Positions 10,855 to 27,830 are shown, counted from the first letter of the whole stretch. The stretch is DNA of 63,090 nucleotides, filler included, from 7 parts of 7 records of this genome joined end to end with filler, not necessarily neighbours in it, one strand, 5' to 3'. Notes: generated by a model not told the origin, from the sequence alone. A program made the numbers and translations.

Positions 10855-11229
10855 TCAGCCCTTCCAGAGACCGTGCAGATTGCAGTACTCTCTGGCACTC
10901 ACTTCGCCGGCTTCCACACAGAATTCGGCCACCGGCTGATCGCCGGGTTTCAGATTCTGACGATAGACCTTGCCGTCGGCAATCAGCTCGATCCACTGAA
11001 TGGAATGCTCTTCCGTCATGGGGTGAAGGGTGCTTCCCACGGTGACCTTGAATCCCTTGTCGGTCTTCTCGATAACGGGAACGTGCTTCTCCGTCGACGA
11101 GTCGGCCGTTTTCTCTTCCAGAAGCTTCATATTCTCACCGCAGCAGACGAGGGGAGCCCCTCCCGCATAGAGTACCTCAACGATATTTCCGCAGTGCTCG
11201 CATTTGTATACCTGATTCACAGCATTCAT
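10855..11229 (-). CDS. dfx: Desulfoferrodoxin (2Fe superoxide reductase)
   Basis: CEHC...CCG desulforedoxin site, EKHVP, HPM.EEH.I and CNLHG. Confidence 0.96.
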
Positions 11230-11256
11230 TTTCTTTCTCCTAATGTATAGATTCTC

Positions 11257-11832
11257 TTACCAGTTCTCGCCGAGAAGTTCGAAGTGGGCCTGGGGATGAT
11301 CGCACGCGGGACACTTGGCGGGGGCGATCTTACCTTCGTAGAGATAACCGCAGTTCCTGCATCTCCATACGACGTCCTCGCTCTTTTCGAACATGGTCCC
11401 TTCGTCGATAAGCTTTTTCAGGCCGAGATAGCGTTTCTCATGCTGTTTTTCGGCTACGGCGATGGCCTCGAAAACGGCGGCGATGACATTGAACCCCTCT
11501 TCCCTCGCGGTTTCCGCAAACTCGGGGTACATCGTCGTCCACTCGTAGTGTTCTCCCGCGGCTGCTTCTGCCAGGTTCTCGCTTGTGGTTCCGATCACGC
11601 CGGCGGGGAAGCTGCCGGTAATCTCAACCTCGCCGCCTTCCAGCAGCTTAAACAGTCTCTTGGCATGTTCTTTTTCCTGATTAGCAGTCTCCTCGAACAC
11701 ATCGGCAATCTGAACGAAACCTTCCTTCTTCGCTTTGGATACGAAGTATGTATAGCGATTTCTAGCCTGAGACTCTCCGCAGAAAGCGGTGAGGATATTC
11801 TTTTCTGTCTTAGTACCTTTCAAACTTGCCAT
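11257..11832 (-). CDS. rbr: Rubrerythrin
   Basis: MASLKGTKTEKN..GESQARNRY, EKEHA, EKQHE and C-terminal CRNC...CPAC. Confidence 0.96.
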   Translation of the reverse strand: MASLKGTKTEKNILTAFCGESQARNRYTYFVSKAKKEGFVQIADVFEETANQEKEHAKRLFKLLEGGEVEITGSFPAGVIGTTSENLAEAAAGEHYEWTTMYPEFAETAREEGFNVIAAVFEAIAVAEKQHEKRYLGLKKLIDEGTMFEKSEDVVWRCRNCGYLYEGKIAPAKCPACDHPQAHFELLGENW

Positions 11833-11954
11833 AGAAAACTCCTTGATAACAATAAAATATTTTGAACAGACGCCCCATCCTTCATACAAAGGGGTGTATA
11901 TGGGTATTGCCGCCTGTATGGAAACCAGATTAATCCGATTTAAACTATAGACGA

Positions 11955-12359
11955 TCAGTCCTGATTTTCAAGCAACTTCGCACATTCGCTGCAAAAACCC
12001 TGGTAATTGAGGGTTTTCGAAGTAATCCTGCGCTCCTTGACCCAGGGATGATCCCCGTCAAGATCCGGAGCCCCAAGTTCGAAGGGTATGTCCTCGATCT
12101 TGCCGCAGGCCTCGCAGCGAAAATGGGGATGGGGGTCCACATTGTAATCAAAGCGCTTCTGCCCCCCCGTGGTCTCGATCTTAACGATAATCCCCTGCTG
12201 CGCCAGGCTTTCCAGGTTTCTGTAAACGGTTCCCAGGCTAATCCGGGGCAGCTCCTTTCTCACCAGCTCAAAAACCATATCCGCGGAGGGATGCTCCTTG
12301 CTCCTGCTCAGGGTGTCCAGAATGATTTTTTTCTGGGCGGTCATCCGTGTCGCTTTCAT
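11955..12359 (-). CDS. perR: Fur-family peroxide regulator PerR-like
   Basis: HPSA, ISLGTVYRNL, HPHFRCEACG and CSEC motifs; first gene of the rbr-dfx-rub operon. Confidence 0.85.
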   Translation of the reverse strand: MKATRMTAQKKIILDTLSRSKEHPSADMVFELVRKELPRISLGTVYRNLESLAQQGIIVKIETTGGQKRFDYNVDPHPHFRCEACGKIEDIPFELGAPDLDGDHPWVKERRITSKTLNYQGFCSECAKLLENQD

Positions 12360-13023: not shown

Positions 13024-13653
13024 TCACTCAAAAGCGCCTTTACGAAATCCTTTTAGCCATTGATCAGCGATCCTTCTCCCCTTTGCGGCATCTGGCACAC
13101 CTGACGAGGACAAACACTCTCTTAACCAAATTCCGTCTATCAGCGCCATTAAACTGTCTGCTGCAAATGCGATGTTCTCAGTAGAGAGATTTTCTTCAAC
13201 ACAAATATCGGTCAGCAGCGCTTTAAGTAACCCAAGAGTTTGTTGGTTCACTTCTGAATATGTCTGATACATTTCTTGTGAATCACGAGTCAGGCTCCAG
13301 AAAACAAGCCAGGCTTTGAGTAAGTCTGGGTCAAGTACCTCAGCAGAAATATACTCATCAAAAAACAGCGCCATTTTTGCTGAAGCACTCTCTTGAGGGC
13401 TATTTTTGATCTTGTCTTTAATCAGCGTTAAATACTTTTCAGAAATGTAGCGGTATGACTCAGCAATTAAGTTGTAAACCGAACCAAAGTGATGGTTAAC
13501 CAAACCTTGTGACACTTCTGCATGCTTGGTAATTTTTCTCACTGAAAGACCCGCATAGCCTTCGGTAATTAAACACTGAATAGCACTGTTGATGAGCAAC
13601 GCTTTCCGTTCATCAGGCTCACAACGGGCAAACTTTTTATCCTGACTGGCCAT
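13024..13653 (-). CDS. TetR family regulator (BetI-like C-terminal domain)
   Basis: HTH LSVRKITKHAEVSQGLVNHHFGS; W..FW and ALIDGIWL motifs. Confidence 0.9.
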   Translation of the reverse strand: MASQDKKFARCEPDERKALLINSAIQCLITEGYAGLSVRKITKHAEVSQGLVNHHFGSVYNLIAESYRYISEKYLTLIKDKIKNSPQESASAKMALFFDEYISAEVLDPDLLKAWLVFWSLTRDSQEMYQTYSEVNQQTLGLLKALLTDICVEENLSTENIAFAADSLMALIDGIWLRECLSSSGVPDAAKGRRIADQWLKGFRKGAFE

Positions 13654-13706: not shown

Positions 13707-13733
13707 TCGGGACTCGAAAACACGGAGTCCCGA
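13707..13733. terminator. Intergenic hairpin / possible terminator
   Basis: TCGGGACTC-N9-GAGTCCCGA. Confidence 0.5.
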
Positions 13734-13781: not shown

Positions 13782-14654
13782 CTATTCACGCACAATAGGG
13801 TTAGTTAAGCACGTTGGCCCACCTTCACAAGCGACACATAACGCATCACCATCGAAAACACTCACTTTAACGCCATGCTCTTCCATCACTTGTTTCGTTT
13901 TTGGAAAGCCGTCAATCATGATGCAATTATCTGGTGTAGTAGGTAATACGTTTAAATTCAGACCAAATGACGCTTCGAATTCATCAGCAGGCGCAACCAC
14001 AAACTCGATACCTTCTGCTTGCATTAACTGCCATAAACGAGTCGGGATCAGTGGAGGGTGCACGAGATATTTCTTCTCTGTGAGTGGAGAAATAACCGAC
14101 ATTAAATGCAAACATGCACTCTCACCTGACCAATAAGGCATATCAAAGCCAAGAACTTTAACACCGTGAGGGTTGAGCAATGCATTTAACTGATTAACAC
14201 CTTCTTCATTTGAACGGAAACCGATGCCGACAAGTAATGTATTGTCGTTAAGCCAGATAAGATCACCACCTTCAATTTTGGCGTCACCGGTAAGTTCGCC
14301 AAGAATCGGAATATTAAGCTGACTAAATTTGCTCTTATGAAGCTCCGGCTCAGGCGTTCGCAGCGGTTTACCCATTCGTAGAGGGATGACGCCCGCTTTG
14401 GTGACCAAAGATGCGTCACGCGTGAACATGGCATCAGAAAGACCATCACCCTCATCATCAATCCAATCGATTCTCGCACCACTTTGCTCAATCAGGTGGC
14501 AAAACTCTTCATATTGCTTAATCGCTTTCTCAGGATTAAAAAGATGGTTGTAATGCCACTCTTCTGCGTCTGCCTGTAAAAAACTTGCACCAGGTTTACG
14601 CATCAATACACGTGACATCTTCCCAGCCATTGACTGACATCCATAATCTGACAT
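13782..14654 (-). CDS. Guanidino-group modifying enzyme (DDAH / arginine deiminase / amidinotransferase superfamily)
   Basis: DAMFTRD, IEGGD, CLHL and C-terminal GGPTCLT provide the Asp/Glu-His-Cys catalytic set. Likely start MSDYGCQ at 14654. Confidence 0.88.
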   Translation of the reverse strand: MSDYGCQSMAGKMSRVLMRKPGASFLQADAEEWHYNHLFNPEKAIKQYEEFCHLIEQSGARIDWIDDEGDGLSDAMFTRDASLVTKAGVIPLRMGKPLRTPEPELHKSKFSQLNIPILGELTGDAKIEGGDLIWLNDNTLLVGIGFRSNEEGVNQLNALLNPHGVKVLGFDMPYWSGESACLHLMSVISPLTEKKYLVHPPLIPTRLWQLMQAEGIEFVVAPADEFEASFGLNLNVLPTTPDNCIMIDGFPKTKQVMEEHGVKVSVFDGDALCVACEGGPTCLTNPIVRE

Positions 14655-14725
14655 TAACTTCTCCCTCATAATGAATGAAATAGATTGGGCGGACGACGTT
14701 AGCCCGCCAATAAAATTTAAGTGGT

Positions 14726-15481
14726 TTACGGCGCGATGTTAGTGCCGAAGTACTGCATTGACAGCTTGTCGTAGTAATCGCTTTTCACGATTTTGTCGAT
14801 GGTCGCACTGAGTTTTTGCTCAAGCGCGGTTTCTTCCAATCTGACTGCCGCTGCAATACCTTTACCCAGAATTGGCTCATAAGGCACTTTGCCGTAGTAC
14901 TCCAAACCCGCTTTGTTTGCGTTAAAGAACTCTGTTGCAGGAATATCATCCGCGATCATGTAATCGAGACGACCCGCCATTAGATCAGAGTTAACCGCAT
15001 CTTGTGTATCGTATTGACGAACAGTCGCAAACTTGCCGAACTTCTCTTTTGCATAGAAAGCCGCGATTGTAGATGTTTGAACACCAATAATTTTGCCTTT
15101 TAACGCGTCTTTAGTCGGTGCAAATTCCTGACCCGCCAGACCGACAAACGCAGGGATAGTATTGTAGTAAGGATGAGTAAACAGCACTTTCTTCGAGCGT
15201 TCATCGGTAACCGTCATGGACGCAAAAATCACATCAATTTTGTCACTGACCAATGCGGGAATAATGCCATCCCATGCAATCTCTTTGATTTGGCAATCTA
15301 AGCTCGCTTCCTCACAAATCTTGTGAATCAAATCGATTTCAAATCCTTTCCAGCTACCATCCGATTGCTTAGTCGCAAATGGTGGGTACGGTTCTGCTGC
15401 AACAGAGAACTTAACGGTATCTGCTGCATTGACAGCTTGAGCGGCCAACAGGCCAGTGAGTATTAGTAGCGCCTTTTTCAT
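14726..15481 (-). CDS. Basic amino acid ABC substrate-binding protein (ArgT/HisJ-like)
   Basis: Signal peptide; YPPF, GFEIDL, WDGIIPAL, SMTVTDER and IGVQ motifs. Confidence 0.9.
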   Translation of the reverse strand: MKKALLILTGLLAAQAVNAADTVKFSVAAEPYPPFATKQSDGSWKGFEIDLIHKICEEASLDCQIKEIAWDGIIPALVSDKIDVIFASMTVTDERSKKVLFTHPYYNTIPAFVGLAGQEFAPTKDALKGKIIGVQTSTIAAFYAKEKFGKFATVRQYDTQDAVNSDLMAGRLDYMIADDIPATEFFNANKAGLEYYGKVPYEPILGKGIAAAVRLEETALEQKLSATIDKIVKSDYYDKLSMQYFGTNIAP

Positions 15482-15506
15482 TTCAACTTCTCCATGTTTT
15501 ACTGAA

Positions 15507-16388
15507 CTAAGAACCAGCATTGCAGGCTAACATTCGTGTTTTTCGCCCGTTCGCAATCACTGAAATAATTCCGCTAAACGCTATCAATAACGCGCCTAGC
15601 ACTAAGAAAGTGTCCGGTGTATCTCCCCAAATAAAGAACGAAAGTAAGAACGCCCAAATCAACCCGCTGTATTCAATCGGAGCTAATGTTGACGCTTCTA
15701 CACGCTCGAAACTTGCAAATAAAAAGTACTGACCCAGCCCACCAATCAAGCCAATACCAAGCATCAGGACTATGGTGCCCGAATCCCACGCGGTGAAAGT
15801 CCAAGGTAAGCTGGCACCTGTGGTCGCAACAAACATAGAGTTCGCTGCAAACATCTGAATCAAAACGCTCACTTTGCCAGAAAGCTTACGCAGCAATATG
15901 TAGGTATAAGCCCAAAGCACTGCTGAAAATAACGCATACCCCACAGCCAGAGTTTGATTGGTAAATCCGGGGCGCGATGCGATAAGCACGCCGACAAACC
16001 CTATGGCGACGGCTGACCACTGCATCTTTGTTGGCTGCTCTTTTAGCAATACCACCGCTAAAGCCACCACGATGACAGGAGCGGAATAATAAAGAGTCGT
16101 CATCTGTGCCAGTGATAATGTAATCGCAGACAAGTAGTAGAAAACCCACGCCATTGCAGCAATAAAACTGCGCCATAGAAGCGGCTTAAGTACTGGTGAG
16201 TCTAAAGTATTCATTACCATGGTTTTGCCGCCAACCACTAAGCAGACAATCACCATGGATAAGCTGCGCCAAAACAGAAGTTCAGCCACCGAGAAATCCG
16301 AAACCAGCCATTTCATCACCGCGTCTTGCGCTGCGAGACATATATAGGCCGCAAAGCTAAACAGAATACCTTTGTTTACTTCTGTCAT
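15507..16388 (-). CDS. DMT/EamA family transporter
   Basis: About ten TM segments in two EamA repeats; GFVGVLIASRPG and ASTLAPIEY motifs. Confidence 0.9.
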   Translation of the reverse strand: MTEVNKGILFSFAAYICLAAQDAVMKWLVSDFSVAELLFWRSLSMVIVCLVVGGKTMVMNTLDSPVLKPLLWRSFIAAMAWVFYYLSAITLSLAQMTTLYYSAPVIVVALAVVLLKEQPTKMQWSAVAIGFVGVLIASRPGFTNQTLAVGYALFSAVLWAYTYILLRKLSGKVSVLIQMFAANSMFVATTGASLPWTFTAWDSGTIVLMLGIGLIGGLGQYFLFASFERVEASTLAPIEYSGLIWAFLLSFFIWGDTPDTFLVLGALLIAFSGIISVIANGRKTRMLACNAGS

Positions 16389-16396
16389 GTTGCCTC

Positions 16397-17083
16397 CTAG
16401 GCTCGTACCGGAATACGTTTTTCAACGCGATAAAAGAAAAACTCAATTAGATACGTCAGAACAACGTAGATAACCGCTACCAATAAAAGTGGCTTATAAA
16501 TATCAAATGTCATTGAACGCAACTGGTTGGCTGCACCGAGAAGATCAACCACAGCAATGGTTGAAGCCAGAGCAGTGGATTTTAATAACAGCACCGTTTC
16601 CCCTGCTAACGTCGGCGTAAGCTGGTACAAAGCACGAGGGAGCTTTACTCGCAGCATAACTTTAGCTGACTTCATGCCAAACGCTTTTGCCGCTTCCACT
16701 TCACCTTTTGGTACGGAAAGCAAACCGCCTCGGAGAACCTCTCCCAGATAGGCGCCCGTGGATAAAATCAAAGCGAACGCTACATACCAGTATCCATCTC
16801 TTAGATAAGGCCAAATAAAGCTAGTACGGATACTTGGGTTAAACGCAAACAACGTCCCTAACCCGTAATAATAAACGTAGATCTGAACCAAAAGAGGCGT
16901 TCCTCTCGTCACACTGGTAAACATAAAAGCACATGCACCAATGATTCGGTTTGATGACAGACGCGCTAATGCCACCAATATGGATAACGCAAAACCCAAC
17001 ACAAGGGAGATAGCCAACAGTGAGATCGTTGTTTGCAAACCGCCCAAGAGTAAATCTGAATATTCGAGTAATTCTTCCATCAT
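16397..17083 (-). CDS. Amino acid ABC permease, HisM-like
   Basis: RGTPLLVQ, EAA loop GEVEAAKAFGM and LLKSTAL. Confidence 0.92.
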   Translation of the reverse strand: MMEELLEYSDLLLGGLQTTISLLAISLVLGFALSILVALARLSSNRIIGACAFMFTSVTRGTPLLVQIYVYYYGLGTLFAFNPSIRTSFIWPYLRDGYWYVAFALILSTGAYLGEVLRGGLLSVPKGEVEAAKAFGMKSAKVMLRVKLPRALYQLTPTLAGETVLLLKSTALASTIAVVDLLGAANQLRSMTFDIYKPLLLVAVIYVVLTYLIEFFFYRVEKRIPVRA

Positions 17084-17091
17084 TATTCCCC

Positions 17092-17802
17092 TTAGTGTTT
17101 AGGCTGCCAACGGCGTAAGTTGATCTCCAGCTGTCTTAAAACAAAGCTGGAGATAAGCGTAATCACGTAATAAATTGCGGCTGCGGTGAGGAAGAAAATT
17201 AGATACTCACGAGTGGAACCGCCTGCTTGCTTTGCGGTATATAACAGCTCATTCGTTCCCACAACACTGATTAGTGCGCTGTCTTTGATAAGGTTAAGCC
17301 ACAGGTTAGATAACCCAGCCAGAACATTTGGTGCCATCATTGGCAAAGTCATACGCCAGAACAGTTTACGTCCTGACATACCGTAAGCTTTCGCCGCTTC
17401 AATATGCCCTGAGTTGAGAGAAACGATGGCACCTCGGAATATTTCAGAAGAATAAGCCCCCTGCACTAAACCAAGAACAAGAATTGCAACCGGCAAACCA
17501 GCCACTTCGATTTCACCGAAACCCAGCGTTGCTGCGACAGTGGTAATCACGCTACTACCGCCATAAAACAACACAATAATTAGCAGCAATTCAGGTACCG
17601 CGCGACAAACCGTCGTGTAAACTTTTGCTATCTGATACCAAAAGCCACTGCCACGTAACTTAACAACGGCAGCAATCAACCCAATAACAATGCCAACAAT
17701 GAAAGCACCAACCGAAATCTGCATTGTTACCCAAGTACCTTTGAGTAATGCAGCTCCCCAGCCCTCACTGCCAAATCCGATAAGTTGAAGTATGTGATCC
17801 AT
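17092..17802 (-). CDS. Amino acid ABC permease, HisQ-like
   Basis: RAVPELL, EIFRGA, GHIEAAKAYGM and LIKDSALISV. Confidence 0.92.
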   Translation of the reverse strand: MDHILQLIGFGSEGWGAALLKGTWVTMQISVGAFIVGIVIGLIAAVVKLRGSGFWYQIAKVYTTVCRAVPELLLIIVLFYGGSSVITTVAATLGFGEIEVAGLPVAILVLGLVQGAYSSEIFRGAIVSLNSGHIEAAKAYGMSGRKLFWRMTLPMMAPNVLAGLSNLWLNLIKDSALISVVGTNELLYTAKQAGGSTREYLIFFLTAAAIYYVITLISSFVLRQLEINLRRWQPKH

Positions 17803-17817
17803 CTTTCACTCCACCTT

Positions 17818-19827
17818 TTAACGGTTATGTTGTGCGTTAATAAACTGACGACAACGTTCACTGCTTGGATTATTGAACAACTTGGAGGGATGCCCTTCAT
17901 CCTCAATAATACCCTGATGAAGAAATGCCACATGTGACGAAACCTCTCGGGCAAATGCCATCTCATGAGTAACCAGAATCATGGTGCGCCCTTCTTCCGC
18001 CAGAGAGCGGATGACTTTCAGCACTTCCCCCACTAACTCTGGATCGAGCGCCGATGTTGGCTCATCAAATAGCATCGCTTTCGGTTCTACCGCTAACGCT
18101 CGCGCAATAGCAACTCGTTGTTGCTGACCACCTGAAAGAAAGCCCGGATAAGCATCTTTTTTGTGTGCCATACCGACTCTCTCTAACAAGGCCATTGCTC
18201 TGTCGATGGCTTCTGCCTTAGATTCTCCAAATACGTGGATCGGTGCTTCAATCAGGTTTTCCAATACGGTTCTATGTGGCCATAAATTGAAGTTTTGGAA
18301 TACCATCCCTAATCGAGAACGAATATCGAGAATCTGTTTAGGATTACGGATAAACGGTTCGCCCTTATGGTCGACATCTGTTTCAATCCCCTCACCGTTG
18401 ACATAAACCAAGCCCTGATTAGGTACTTCTAACATATTGATGCAACGCAATAAGGTACTTTTACCTGAGCCTGAACCGCCAATCAGTGAAATAACATCCC
18501 CTTGACGAGCCGTCAGAGAAACACCTTTAAGCACTTCGTTATCACCAAATTTCTTGTGCAGGTCGACAACCTCAATCACTTTCTCAGGCTTTTTCAGTTT
18601 TATCGCTTCTGGGCTGCTTGAAAACAGTGACGATTTAAACGATTTTGGCTGTTCAAAGTCCAAACCGGAAATGTAGATTTTAATTCGCTCACACGCTTCA
18701 ACTAAGCGGTCTTCACCAATGGCAAAAGAAAGTCGAATAAAACCACTGGCAGCTTTGCCAAAAGCCGCTGCGTCAAGCGTAGCCACCAGCTGACTATCAA
18801 ATAAACCCCAGATAAACTGCTCGGAAGTGACAGGTAGCTCCCGGATGTCTAACAAAACAAACATCCCTGCATCTGGCTTCATCACTTTCAACGATGGACA
18901 ATCGCTTAAGTGCTCAATAACTAAGTCACAGCGTCGTTGATACACTTCTCGCATCTGAGTTGAGATTTCATCAAAGTGTTCGATCGCCGTAATCGCGGCT
19001 TTTTGTATAAAGCCCGGTAAGCCATAGAACATATTCAAAGCCAAGCGTTCTATATGCTCGGTGAGTTCTCTGTTTGCGATAACCCAACCAGATCGCCAAC
19101 CTGTCATCGCATGAGATTTAGATAAACTACTGATCACCACAGTTCGTTCTGCCATGCCCGGCAAGTCACGAATATTGAGATGTGGTTTGTCAAAATTCAG
19201 ATAACCGTACACTTCATCGGAAACCACCCATAAATCAAACTCTTTTGCCAAGTCTGCAATAGCCTGAATCTCGCTAAGATCCATCATTCGGCCTGTTGGG
19301 TTATTAGGGTTGGCAAAGAATATTGCTTTGGTTTTTGCGGTAACTGCCTGACGAAGAGCGTCCGCATCAAGCCTGAAGTAATCGTCACCAAGCGTTGGTA
19401 CAGAAACCACTTTAGCGCCTGTTGCCTGAAGTGTTGCCTGATAAGTGACGTAAGAAGGGTCAAGCATTAAGACTTCATCACCTTCACTCAATATACATTG
19501 AGCGGTGGAGTACAAGCCATTTTGAGTGCCGGGTACGATGATGATTTCATCCCGCGAGACAGAAGACTTAGCAGTGCGATTATAATGTTCGGCAATTGCG
19601 TCACGAAGTTCATCATAACCACGCATTTCGGTGTAGTGTGTCTCACCACTTTTTAGAGCATTAATCGCTTCATTAGTGACAACATCAGGGGTATTAAACT
19701 CTGGGTCCCCTACGCTCAAGATAATCACATCCTGACCGTTTTGCTGTGCCTCAAGCGCTTTAGTATGAATTAGCCACGCATCACCGCCTTCACTTTTAAT
19801 GCGCTCAACTAATGGAGAATATTCCAT
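17818..19827 (-). CDS. Fusion: AruH-like class I/II PLP aminotransferase (~aa 1-388) + HisP-type ABC ATPase (~aa 415-669)
   Basis: N-terminal half has LSVGDP.F, NPNNPTG, SDEVY and SLSKSHAMTGWR. C-terminal half has GGSGSGKST, VFQNFNL, LSGGQQQR, LFDEP and VTHEM. One uninterrupted frame. Confidence 0.9.
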   Translation of the reverse strand: MEYSPLVERIKSEGGDAWLIHTKALEAQQNGQDVIILSVGDPEFNTPDVVTNEAINALKSGETHYTEMRGYDELRDAIAEHYNRTAKSSVSRDEIIIVPGTQNGLYSTAQCILSEGDEVLMLDPSYVTYQATLQATGAKVVSVPTLGDDYFRLDADALRQAVTAKTKAIFFANPNNPTGRMMDLSEIQAIADLAKEFDLWVVSDEVYGYLNFDKPHLNIRDLPGMAERTVVISSLSKSHAMTGWRSGWVIANRELTEHIERLALNMFYGLPGFIQKAAITAIEHFDEISTQMREVYQRRCDLVIEHLSDCPSLKVMKPDAGMFVLLDIRELPVTSEQFIWGLFDSQLVATLDAAAFGKAASGFIRLSFAIGEDRLVEACERIKIYISGLDFEQPKSFKSSLFSSSPEAIKLKKPEKVIEVVDLHKKFGDNEVLKGVSLTARQGDVISLIGGSGSGKSTLLRCINMLEVPNQGLVYVNGEGIETDVDHKGEPFIRNPKQILDIRSRLGMVFQNFNLWPHRTVLENLIEAPIHVFGESKAEAIDRAMALLERVGMAHKKDAYPGFLSGGQQQRVAIARALAVEPKAMLFDEPTSALDPELVGEVLKVIRSLAEEGRTMILVTHEMAFAREVSSHVAFLHQGIIEDEGHPSKLFNNPSSERCRQFINAQHNR

Positions 19828-19885
19828 TTTGCTCTCCTTCTATTATCCCGTTTCCTTACGGATTAAAAATCAGCCTAATAGAAAA

Positions 19886-19934
19886 TGAACGGTCGTTCAA
19901 TAGCGTAAAATCCATTATTTATACGATCGTTCAA
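19886..19934. promoter_or_regulatory. Two related palindromic operators, probably for the TetR
   Basis: TGAACG-GT-CGTTCA (19886-19899) and TTATACG-AT-CGTTCAA (19919-19934) upstream of the operon. Confidence 0.65.
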
Positions 19935-26540: not shown

Positions 26541-27830
26541 TTACCACTGAATATCTACGGATGATTTCAATCGATTTGTCCAAGACTTATTTTTTTCCGA
26601 AACATAGAAATGGCCTACGCTGGGTCTGTAAACGCTTACTTCCTGTTTTTTGTCTCCGTCAAAATCAATAGGTAATGGTAAATCACCATTTACGCCCCAC
26701 TGAATTACTTTTCTGTTTTTATCTTCATCGCCGGTATAAGACTCGTTATTTAAACTTATGTGCCATTCTCCAGTACTGGGTCTCCAAATGGCTACTTCTA
26801 ATTTTCCATCTCCATTGGAGTCAATAGGTCGAGGAATATCATTGTTGGTACCCCATTGGATAGTCCAGAATTCTTTGTTTTCTGCTGAAGAGGAGCTATT
26901 ATCCAGTGATATATACCAGCTTCCGATAGAGCCGGGACGGTAGGTAGCAATATTGGTTTTGCCATCACCATTATAATCGCCAGGCACGGGAATATCTTTC
27001 TCGCCTCCCCACTGTATGGTTTCAATTGTATTGTCATCTTCAGAAAAAGGGTGGTTGTCCATAGAGATTATCCAGTTTCCTAAATATGGTCGCCATACAG
27101 CTATTTCTATTTGTCCATCACCATCGTAATCACCAGGAACAGGTATATCACCCCATTGACCAAAATGAATAGCCCTGTAATTTTGTGCATCGGAGTTAAA
27201 TGATTGATTATCCAGCGAAATATACCATACGCCTTCTGAGGGACGCCAAACAGCCATTTCATCTTTACCATCTCCATTATAATCGCCCGGAACAGGAATA
27301 TCTCCTTTAGTTCCAAACTGACTTATAATACATTCGTCTCCTTTAGAATTCCAGGGTTTGTTGGCTGTAGAAATATACCAATAGCCATTCTCAGGTCGCC
27401 ATATCGCCACTTCCTCTATTCCATCTCCGTCGTAATCTGCTGGAACAGGTATATTGGCATTAACGCTTAATGGAAGGGCTAATGAGCAAATAAGTAGTTC
27501 CTTGGCCAATGTGTTTTTCTTAAAAAAGAATAAGAAAAAAGGAACAAAAGCTGCTATTAGAGGAACATAAAAGTACTTGGTCAATACTGACTTTACTCTT
27601 CCTGAAGCACTTGGTTTAATTTCAGGTTCATCATGAGTATTTCTTAACTGGTTCATTGGTACACCTAGTACTTCTGCTATGCGTTTCATTGAATCACCTC
27701 TTGGAACTGTTTCCTGGTTTTCTATTCTCTGAACGGTTCTTAAACTTAAGCCACTTTGTTCCGATAATTTTTCCTGTGATAAGCCTTTTAATTCTCTTAG
27801 CTGTTTAATCTTCTCTGCGTGAATTGTCAT
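26541..27830 (-). CDS. XRE-family HTH + membrane segment + six FG-GAP/VCBS-like repeats
   Basis: IKQLRELKGLSQEKLSEQSGLSLRTVQRIE; TM YFYVPLIAAFVPFFLFFF; six DIPVPGDY.GDG...AVWRP..G.W.IS repeats. Confidence 0.85.
   Translation of the reverse strand: MTIHAEKIKQLRELKGLSQEKLSEQSGLSLRTVQRIENQETVPRGDSMKRIAEVLGVPMNQLRNTHDEPEIKPSASGRVKSVLTKYFYVPLIAAFVPFFLFFFKKNTLAKELLICSLALPLSVNANIPVPADYDGDGIEEVAIWRPENGYWYISTANKPWNSKGDECIISQFGTKGDIPVPGDYNGDGKDEMAVWRPSEGVWYISLDNQSFNSDAQNYRAIHFGQWGDIPVPGDYDGDGQIEIAVWRPYLGNWIISMDNHPFSEDDNTIETIQWGGEKDIPVPGDYNGDGKTNIATYRPGSIGSWYISLDNSSSSAENKEFWTIQWGTNNDIPRPIDSNGDGKLEVAIWRPSTGEWHISLNNESYTGDEDKNRKVIQWGVNGDLPLPIDFDGDKKQEVSVYRPSVGHFYVSEKNKSWTNRLKSSVDIQW

Follow-up and report, generated by a model that had tools for sequence, protein, structure and literature searches.

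Aminotransferase and importer ATPase in one gene

We analyzed a stretch of DNA of 63,090 nucleotides (the window), composed of 7 contigs joined by runs of N, and describe here a gene that joins a pyridoxal phosphate (PLP)-dependent aminotransferase (AT) to the ATPase of an amino acid importer. The gene lies on the 9.1-kb segment 12744–21849 (44% GC), where positions 17818–19827 of the minus strand form a single stop-free open reading frame (ORF) of 669 amino acids, with a Shine-Dalgarno-like AAGGAG upstream of its ATG (19834–19839, minus strand). The product comprises a class I, AruH-like AT domain (amino acids 1–389; 18661–19827, minus strand), a linker (amino acids 390–416; 18580–18660, minus strand), and a HisP-type nucleotide-binding domain (NBD, amino acids 417–669; 17818–18579, minus strand). 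Pfam searches placed Aminotran_1_2 (PF00155) at amino acids 33–382 (E-value 5.5e-65, 220 bits against a gathering threshold of 19.7) and ABC_tran at amino acids 433–592 (E-value 5e-33). HisP was the top NCBIfam match of the C-terminal half (amino acids 415–664), although its 353 bits fall below the 466-bit cutoff of the HisP equivalog NF007908. The closest solved relative of amino acids 415–665 is HisP (1B0U, E-value 3e-95), those of amino acids 10–389 are aspartate/aromatic aminotransferases of the subgroup I-gamma type, and none of the 60 solved chains listed matched both halves.

The translation contains the PLP motif SLSKSHAMTGWR with K237 in the AT half and, in the NBD, Walker A GGSGSGKS (K456), Q511, the LSGGQ signature (564–568), Walker B D588/E589, and H621. 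In 121 of 121 aligned fusions N176, D204, Y207, K237, R245, R365, K456, E589, and H621 are the same, among them the Schiff-base lysine (K237), the pyridine-nitrogen aspartate (D204), and the carboxylate-binding arginine (R365). Q511 and the ABC signature are likewise invariant, and Y65 is kept in 120 of the 121, the sole exception among the catalytic residues checked. Translation, Pfam, motifs, and aligned fusions altogether confirm what an earlier note on this DNA had claimed, that one gene codes for an AT and an NBD with the catalytic residues of both intact. The same note had taken the protein to be the only ATPase for the adjacent permease and solute-binding protein (SBP) genes. There is no second NBD in segment 12744–21849, and a further NBD match, distant (28%) and approximately 8.5 kb off, was found near only 1 of 32 loci with an intact fusion. 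The fusion is therefore the sole ATPase of its HisQ/HisM/SBP operon.

The linker was described earlier as approximately 25 residues long and Ser/Lys-rich; this fits the window member (27 amino acids) but not the family, in which the linker ranges from 22 to 71 amino acids (median 29, 121 fusions) and is Ala/Pro-rich. Its modal conservation is 0.34 versus 0.78 for the AT and 0.89 for the NBD. AlphaFold2, run with the 121 aligned fusions, returned two well-folded domains (mean pLDDT 86, pTM 0.59) and pLDDT values below 50 at amino acids 394–412 of the linker, which is predicted to be disordered. Complex prediction with the AT domain and the NBD as separate chains gave a score of 0.00, which yields no verdict either way. 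Two overlapping low-depth contigs of an independent run (18439–18664 and 18635–19173) span the linker gap-free. The near-identical runs X2 and X6 left it uncovered, which is no proof, and X1 gave short motif matches only.

A conserved cassette and its predicted operator

The best 120 of 6532 homologs are all full-length two-domain fusions (662–713 amino acids, 57–92% identity), and those named include Vibrio hippocampi, Marinomonas agarivorans, and many Pseudomonas. Of 401 genomes in a genus-wide Pseudomonas sample, with two candidates scored in each, 70 carry the fusion; none of these genes has an internal stop, and one is truncated by a contig end. The Marinomonas family yielded it in 2 of its 64 genomes and the order that includes Colwellia in 3 of 401; an alphaproteobacterial class sample of 301 genomes, scored at 3 candidates each, yielded none. 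Among plasmid records, one from Agrobacterium rubi carries it as a single coding sequence, and the only other one to reach 80% query coverage consists of two unrelated genes. None of the 43 loci of a metagenome motif scan was fused, most of them being pairs of AT and AruI. The best 150 matches of a profile search of 1.84 billion representatives hold one cluster (at 50%) of full-length AT-NBD fusions. Fused NBDs form one clade (SH-aLRT 94 in one tree, 97 in another), as do the SBPs (support 0.966) and the TetR regulators (91) of fusion loci, and the fused ATs share a branch with six nested unfused ATs (support 83; 0.90 in another tree). One unfused AT of 409 amino acids (P0122, Reinekea thalattae) sits inside the marine fused clade and may stem from either clean fission or transporter loss. 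The fusion is a real, conserved, and widespread join, and its spread over Vibrio, Marinomonas, Pseudomonas, and Agrobacterium looks like transfer.

After the fusion, on the same strand, follow genes for a HisQ/ArtQ-like permease (17092–17802) and a HisM/ArtM-like permease (16397–17083), both assigned by Pfam and NCBIfam; an EamA/DMT transporter (15507–16388; Pfam, locus census), a candidate product exporter; and a family 3 SBP of the Lys/Arg/Orn type (14726–15520, likely start near 15481; Pfam, NCBIfam, structure matches, tree). The series ends with a pentein (ADI/DDAH-fold) amidinohydrolase (13782–14669; profiles, structure matches, motifs) and a BetI-like TetR regulator (13024–13653; Pfam, NCBIfam, census, tree). 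In the census of the 32 intact-fusion loci, the SBP and the two HisQ/M permeases stand beside the fusion in all 32, followed by TetR (31), a CphZ-like M14 hydrolase (25), EamA (24), AruI (5), and the amidinohydrolase (3). AT, NBD, SBP, and TetR are inherited together as a cassette. Two features, both at chance level in the scan, may mark transcript boundaries: a GC-rich hairpin (14688–14708) that separates the SBP gene from that of the amidinohydrolase, and an inverted repeat of 9 bp (13707–13733) that separates the latter from the TetR gene. A promoter scan returned 7 sites versus 12.2 expected.

A palindrome of the TGAAC-N4-GTTCA type (19886–19899), 72 nt upstream of the fusion start, is the predicted TetR site, and a second, imperfect copy lies at 19920–19933; both came from the palindrome and locus scans. 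We take the site to resemble the BetI box. Every fusion-type locus (36 of 36, the window included by construction) has it no more than 300 nt upstream, and so do 4 of 4 remnants in which the AT is deleted. Among 10 loci with only the AT, it occurs at precisely the 3 with TetR still adjacent and at none of the 7 without TetR in the fetched stretch. Of 22 scanned split loci, it occurs at the 4 Burkholderia-type operons with a divergent TetR, at canonical AruH-type AT genes it is absent (0/18), and 29 of 720 random windows contain it. The operator tracks TetR. In several Pseudomonas loci it also precedes the genes for the M14 hydrolase and AruI. A genome-wide scan returned the cassette sites, a locus with a second SBP and an M20 gene (G856), a different TetR/AhpD-type locus with several sites, and unrelated positions; control patterns matched too, and the strict pattern missed 2 of 5 Pseudomonas genomes. 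The G856 locus (L243:5915–8260) has a second operator copy before the extra SBP (61% to that of the window) and an M20 gene split in two ORFs, and a similar M20 hydrolase gene lies divergently upstream of the fusion at L005. On other contigs of the window we noted, by eye, a helix-turn-helix-like N-terminus and membrane segment fused to many DYDGDG-type repeats (26541–27830, minus strand) and an ordinary oxidative-stress cluster of Fur/PerR-like regulator, rubrerythrin-like, and desulfoferrodoxin-like genes (10855–12359, minus strand).

The aminotransferase half and its probable cargo

The likeness of the N-terminal half to AruH, the arginine:pyruvate transaminase named in the earlier note, stood as a family resemblance but not as an identity. 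Both proteins have the class I fold, a near-identical PLP motif, and an N-terminal W-x-I-H motif, many sources name homologs 'arginine:pyruvate transaminase', and AruI-type and aldehyde dehydrogenase genes, as in the aru pathway, recur near related loci. That pathway is outlined for Pseudomonas as AruH, the decarboxylase AruI, KauB, and guanidinobutyrase, and P. putida has the arrangement aruI, AT, aldehyde dehydrogenase (bioRxiv 10.1101/2021.12.09.472016). The canonical group used here is defined by this gene context, with no curated AruH sequence behind it. From that group the fusion AT is separated by its own clade, by an identity of 44–47%, and by its active-site loops (QN versus QC, NPNN versus SPHN, YGLPG versus YGSPD), and genome G003 codes for both types. 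Canonical genes have neither the TetR operator nor an NBD, whereas the fusion AT has both. We therefore reject orthology with AruH; by sequence, the fusion AT appears to be a paralog.

AruI-family decarboxylases stand beside related ATs (NF005712 above its cutoff for L025), and none was found on the window contig. Several other clusters of this family were noted. A split paralogous Pseudomonas operon with NBD, SBP, permeases, and AT (L016, L018, L020, L025, L142–L146, L202–L205) carries AruI plus an M20, an Amidohydro_3/CobW, or a divergent M14 gene. At L027, L051, and L019, AT and AruI genes cluster with gamma-butyrobetaine-dioxygenase-like and TmpA-like oxygenases, an HD protein, and GbdR-type regulators, at L027 and L051 also with a choline-type SBP; these are possibly pathways for trimethyllysine or a related quaternary amine. 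Genes resembling, as named from their sequence starts, acyl-CoA dehydrogenase, acyl-CoA synthetase, and enoyl-CoA hydratase lie beside AruI and AT at L149:688–5351, L154, and L061, which suggests that the product is beta-oxidised in some lineages.

LAO and arginine-binding proteins are the best matches of the SBP, in which the alpha-amino/carboxylate contacts R77 and D161 are retained. At side-chain positions, in what we take to be LAO numbering, D11 is replaced by A beside a new E, F52 by W, and S69 by A. The amidinohydrolase of the window has the Asp85/His188/Cys287 triad, keeps FTRD, has HLM in place of HLD, and matches 3RHY with an E-value of 4e-7. With 69.5 bits against the NCBIfam DDAH cutoff of 340, it is not classed as the dimethylargininase DDAH. 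It is not the citrullinase CtlX either, in which FPNN and HTN replace FTRD and HLD (PMC9007349). Its HLM is unlike ADI or CtlX and nearer to the loss of the second Asp in DDAH. In Limnohabitans (L070), an operator-like site with two mismatches lies between the NBD gene of a sister transporter and a DDAH-like gene (E-value 2e-62 to P. aeruginosa DDAH) and is common to both.

The M14 hydrolase of the Pseudomonas and Burkholderia loci resembles CphZ/AotO. Checked were the H-E-H zinc ligands, R102/N112/R113, D181, D222/E223, E251, and K366; zinc, carboxylate, and acidic-pocket residues are kept and K366 is not, and in the L009 enzyme aligned to 8EIN all were kept except D222 (E) and K366 (S). CphZ/AotO is described as cleaving beta-Asp-Arg, and the aot operon as carrying this M14 hydrolase and importing beta-Asp-Arg (PMC9974463). 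A GntC-family match in the profile scan reached 282 bits against a cutoff of 415. The type of SBP together with the linked hydrolases (M14, pentein, and the L070 DDAH) indicates that the cargo is likely a modified arginine-type amino acid. Our leading guess, held tentatively, is an omega-N-methylated arginine. Another Arg, Lys, or Orn analogue is possible, an N-alpha-acylated or isopeptide-bound Arg/Lys freed by a linked hydrolase is rather doubtful, and a substrate of some other kind is quite unlikely. Transamination and DDAH-type hydrolysis are described as two routes for methylarginines (PMC9309667). They provide a model for the substrate guess, by analogy only. AGXT2, the mammalian dimethylarginine:pyruvate aminotransferase, is given as a class II enzyme (PMC9309667), the fusion AT belongs to class I, and the tests run detected no homology between them.

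Loss of either half and the competing explanations

At 8 Pseudomonas loci (L127–L133 and L013) the AT function is lost and the NBD (74% to that of the window), SBP, permeases, EamA, and M14 hydrolase are kept. Four of them carry a decayed AT (34–40%) with the small domain deleted and the PLP motif altered or lost, and in the other 4 only the first few AT residues (approximately 10) and the linker are left. The loci of this series have lost TetR and kept the operator. A single frame runs from the AT start codon and its Shine-Dalgarno sequence through the intact NBD at all 8. Gaps are multiples of three in the two cleanly aligned cases (7/7 and 4/4) and, at L129, in 5 of 7 cases plus a compensating pair; indel counts for L130 and the four remnants are unreliable because the aligner splits large deletions, and ORF continuity was used there. 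The retained frame indicates that translation of the NBD relies on the start of the AT. Since loci without a working AT keep an intact NBD, the importer is retained without the enzyme, and coupling of the two is not obligatory. By a simple counting method, dN/dS of the pairs measured is 0.41–0.49 among decayed ATs, 0.07–0.13 among intact ATs, and 0.01–0.09 among NBDs. Each of the 7 sampled genomes in which the fused AT has decayed or been deleted carries a further AruH-like AT at another site. Conversely, 10 loci keep an AT of the fused clade and have lost the transporter. In sister operons (Burkholderia, Paraburkholderia, other Pseudomonas) the NBD and AT genes are separate, at opposite ends. 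Unfused, adjacent AT-then-NBD genes occur in related operons at L027 (with stop and start back to back), L031, and L051, which in the tree are not sisters of the fused clade.

We favor, at slightly better than even odds (probability about 0.55), the explanation that the locus is a TetR-controlled uptake–catabolism cassette for a modified arginine-type basic amino acid, with the first catabolic enzyme loosely tethered to the importer ATPase. A single full-length chain would be made from the AT start and two chains would supply the NBD dimer under HisQ/HisM, so that each importer would carry an AT dimer on flexible tethers. The AT would transaminate the imported amino acid as AruH does, from amino acid and pyruvate to 2-oxo acid and alanine, which would free nitrogen and keep the amino acid pool near the importer low. 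The keto acid might then pass to an AruI-type decarboxylase where present, or may exit through EamA. What the fusion would give is fixed 1:1 co-expression and co-location, and no sealed channel. The variable linker, the loss of either half, and the sister operons in which the two are split all count against a coupling that is obligatory and structured. Of the earlier proposal of tethering for channeling or coupling of uptake to catabolism, the position of the enzyme on the cytoplasmic side of the importer follows from the fusion, whereas channeling or obligatory coupling is unsupported as stated there, and a direct hand-over of cargo is hypothetical.

Several observations weigh against the loose-tether cassette. 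No locus of the fused clade with both halves intact but split was found among the loci seen, so the join is possibly selected more strongly than a loose tether implies. Amidinohydrolase orthologs (76–77%) stand beside the fusion in only 2 other loci, 3 of 32 in total; a search of 5 other fusion genomes yielded none, and no DDAH was found in 5 fusion genomes. An AruI ortholog was not found in the 4 marine fusion genomes tested (it was found in G002), and AruI lies near only 5 of 32 fusion loci, which makes the downstream route non-uniform. Some internal initiation is possible, because the window has a GTG at the NBD start (18579) with a weak Shine-Dalgarno sequence (3-base match) and Met occupies this position in 43 of 121 fusions. 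Finally, a clade of fused ATs is neither established nor rejected by the trees, where a support of 83 is only moderate and is not starred.

A possible, though doubtful, alternative is that the tethered enzyme is functionally coupled to the importer, either regulating transport by substrate-sensing transinhibition, as the MetN/ModC domains do, or truly channeling cargo. The AT and NBD families are both dimeric, so AT dimerisation could restrain the opening of the NBDs. The enzyme-NBD architecture does recur in other bacteria: the best 150 representatives of the profile search include other enzyme-NBD proteins, two of which are conserved families. The DUF2817-NBD fusion occurs in records of Rhizobiales (Rhizobium, Mesorhizobium, Ensifer, Shinella, Sinorhizobium), where 23 plasmid records cover at least 80% of the query (67–72% in the top 15 rows). 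It is a single coding sequence before SBP and permease genes in both loci examined (L251:8001–9968 and L252:7977–9941; also P0264). The neighboring genes there code for a Rieske oxygenase, a hisC-like aminotransferase, and an FAD oxidoreductase, with formaldehyde-detoxification genes at L252, a set that suggests demethylation of an N-methylated amino acid. By eye, DUF2817 has GTHGVE and DLH motifs like M14 zinc hydrolases.

In the second family, of gut Firmicutes (Blautia obeum and Peptoniphilus coxii are named members), a TcyN-like, cystine-type NBD precedes a PatB C-S lyase that scores above the cutoff of TIGR04350. It is distant, its domain order is reversed, and 22 of 37 listed clusters are full-length (P0271, P0403–P0423). 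PLP residues are kept in 13 of these 22; the other 9 have lost the PLP-binding Asp, 4 of them also the Lys, and yet are full length, a point in favor of functional coupling. This nine-cluster subgroup, with P. coxii named, looks like a full-length pseudoenzyme and a candidate regulatory domain. Each of the three families has its own NBD clade (97 for AT-NBD, 99 and 100 for the other two). Separate NBD origins of AT-NBD and DUF2817-NBD were not established, since one clade was not rejected (p-AU 0.70); their partner domains are unrelated. Fusions with a single member (P0383, P0305, P0385, P0425), which may be chance read-throughs, join an NBD to AstE/AspA, a partial gamma-glutamyltranspeptidase to an NBD, an aminotransferase to a 2-hydroxyacid dehydrogenase, and a permease to PatB, respectively. 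One might go as far as to propose that PAAT importers repeatedly recruited a first catabolic enzyme onto the NBD (the AruH-like transaminase in Proteobacteria, DUF2817 in Rhizobiales, PatB in gut Firmicutes) and so make up a class not yet described, with a dimeric enzyme coupled to the NBD cycle that processes or senses cargo, with the pseudoenzymes being regulatory and the enzyme described here also a methylarginine transaminase route, a scheme that we regard as speculative and doubtful.

Functional coupling would further agree with the dN/dS of the decayed ATs, which lies below 1, and with regulatory domains on NBDs being described as an established theme (PMC10710835). Against it stand the unconstrained length and sequence of the linker, the erosion of the AT to approximately 10 residues in four loci while the NBD is under purifying selection, the separation of AT and NBD in sister operons, and a test, as cited in PMC4921024, in which fusion alone did not promote channeling.

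It is unlikely that the join arose and persists without benefit as a neutral ratchet, in which the stop between adjacent AT and NBD genes was lost once, the HisP-type N-terminus tolerated its cargo, and the start signal of the NBD was then lost. Unfused AT-then-NBD neighbors do exist, the full-length fusions without exception belong to a single 50% cluster and a single NBD clade, either half has been lost repeatedly, and another AruH-like AT is present wherever the fused AT has decayed in the genomes sampled. However, the join is kept down to 57% identity and across the apparent transfers, unrelated enzymes have joined PAAT NBDs in the two other conserved families, and the unfused adjacent loci are not sisters of the fused clade.

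The internal GTG, the Met at NBD starts, and the ATG that Pseudomonas alleles have at the NBD boundary (with no conserved Shine-Dalgarno sequence) notwithstanding, an artefact, a read-through of recent date, or a pair of products made chiefly from an internal start is very improbable: independent fused homologs number over 100, and many of them lie on complete chromosomes; six loci (L001, L008, L010, L190, L191, L192) have a non-start codon at the NBD boundary, and an internal start codon is not conserved; decayed alleles keep the frame; and the two contigs crossing the linker come from another study. A sequencing artefact is refuted. The earlier note had named a stop or indel in the linker, orthologs that are always two genes, and an NBD translated mainly from an internal start as what would speak against a fusion; the linker is crossed gap-free, the orthologs are fused, and the NBD start is as just described.

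The natural fused, decayed, AT-deleted, AT-only, and split forms provide a test system for whether tethering an enzyme to a transporter changes flux, retention, or feedback. The cassette and its operator-defined regulon suggest that approximately 1 in 6 sampled Pseudomonas genomes encode an as yet unannotated route for breaking down a modified nutrient of the arginine type, and the fusion explains mis-annotations that name these proteins after one half only. With the PAAT importers HisJQMP, ArtPIQM, and AotJQMOP the system shares a HisP-type NBD, two permeases, and a family 3 SBP. Here, in contrast, a 390-residue enzyme sits on the NBD, all components fall below the NCBIfam equivalog cutoffs, and regulation is by a BetI-like TetR instead of ArgR. 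ATPases of ABC importers normally stand alone or carry small regulatory domains. Uptake is coupled to the first metabolic step by UgpQ with the Ugp importer, GlpF-GlpK, SulP-carbonic anhydrase fusions, and the phosphotransferase system (PTS), and to our knowledge none of these joins an enzyme to the ATPase subunit in an amino acid importer that depends on a binding protein. The literature searched, with subscription journals outside the search, held no description of an enzyme fused to the NBD of an amino acid importer, in line with the earlier note, which knew of no characterised example. Further comparators are MetN, ModC, and CBS-domain transporters, described as having a fused extra cytoplasmic domain that can bind a small molecule (PMC10710835). 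Those domains are small, non-catalytic, and usually C-terminal, whereas the fusion analyzed here carries a complete dimeric enzyme at its N-terminus, on a linker of variable length.

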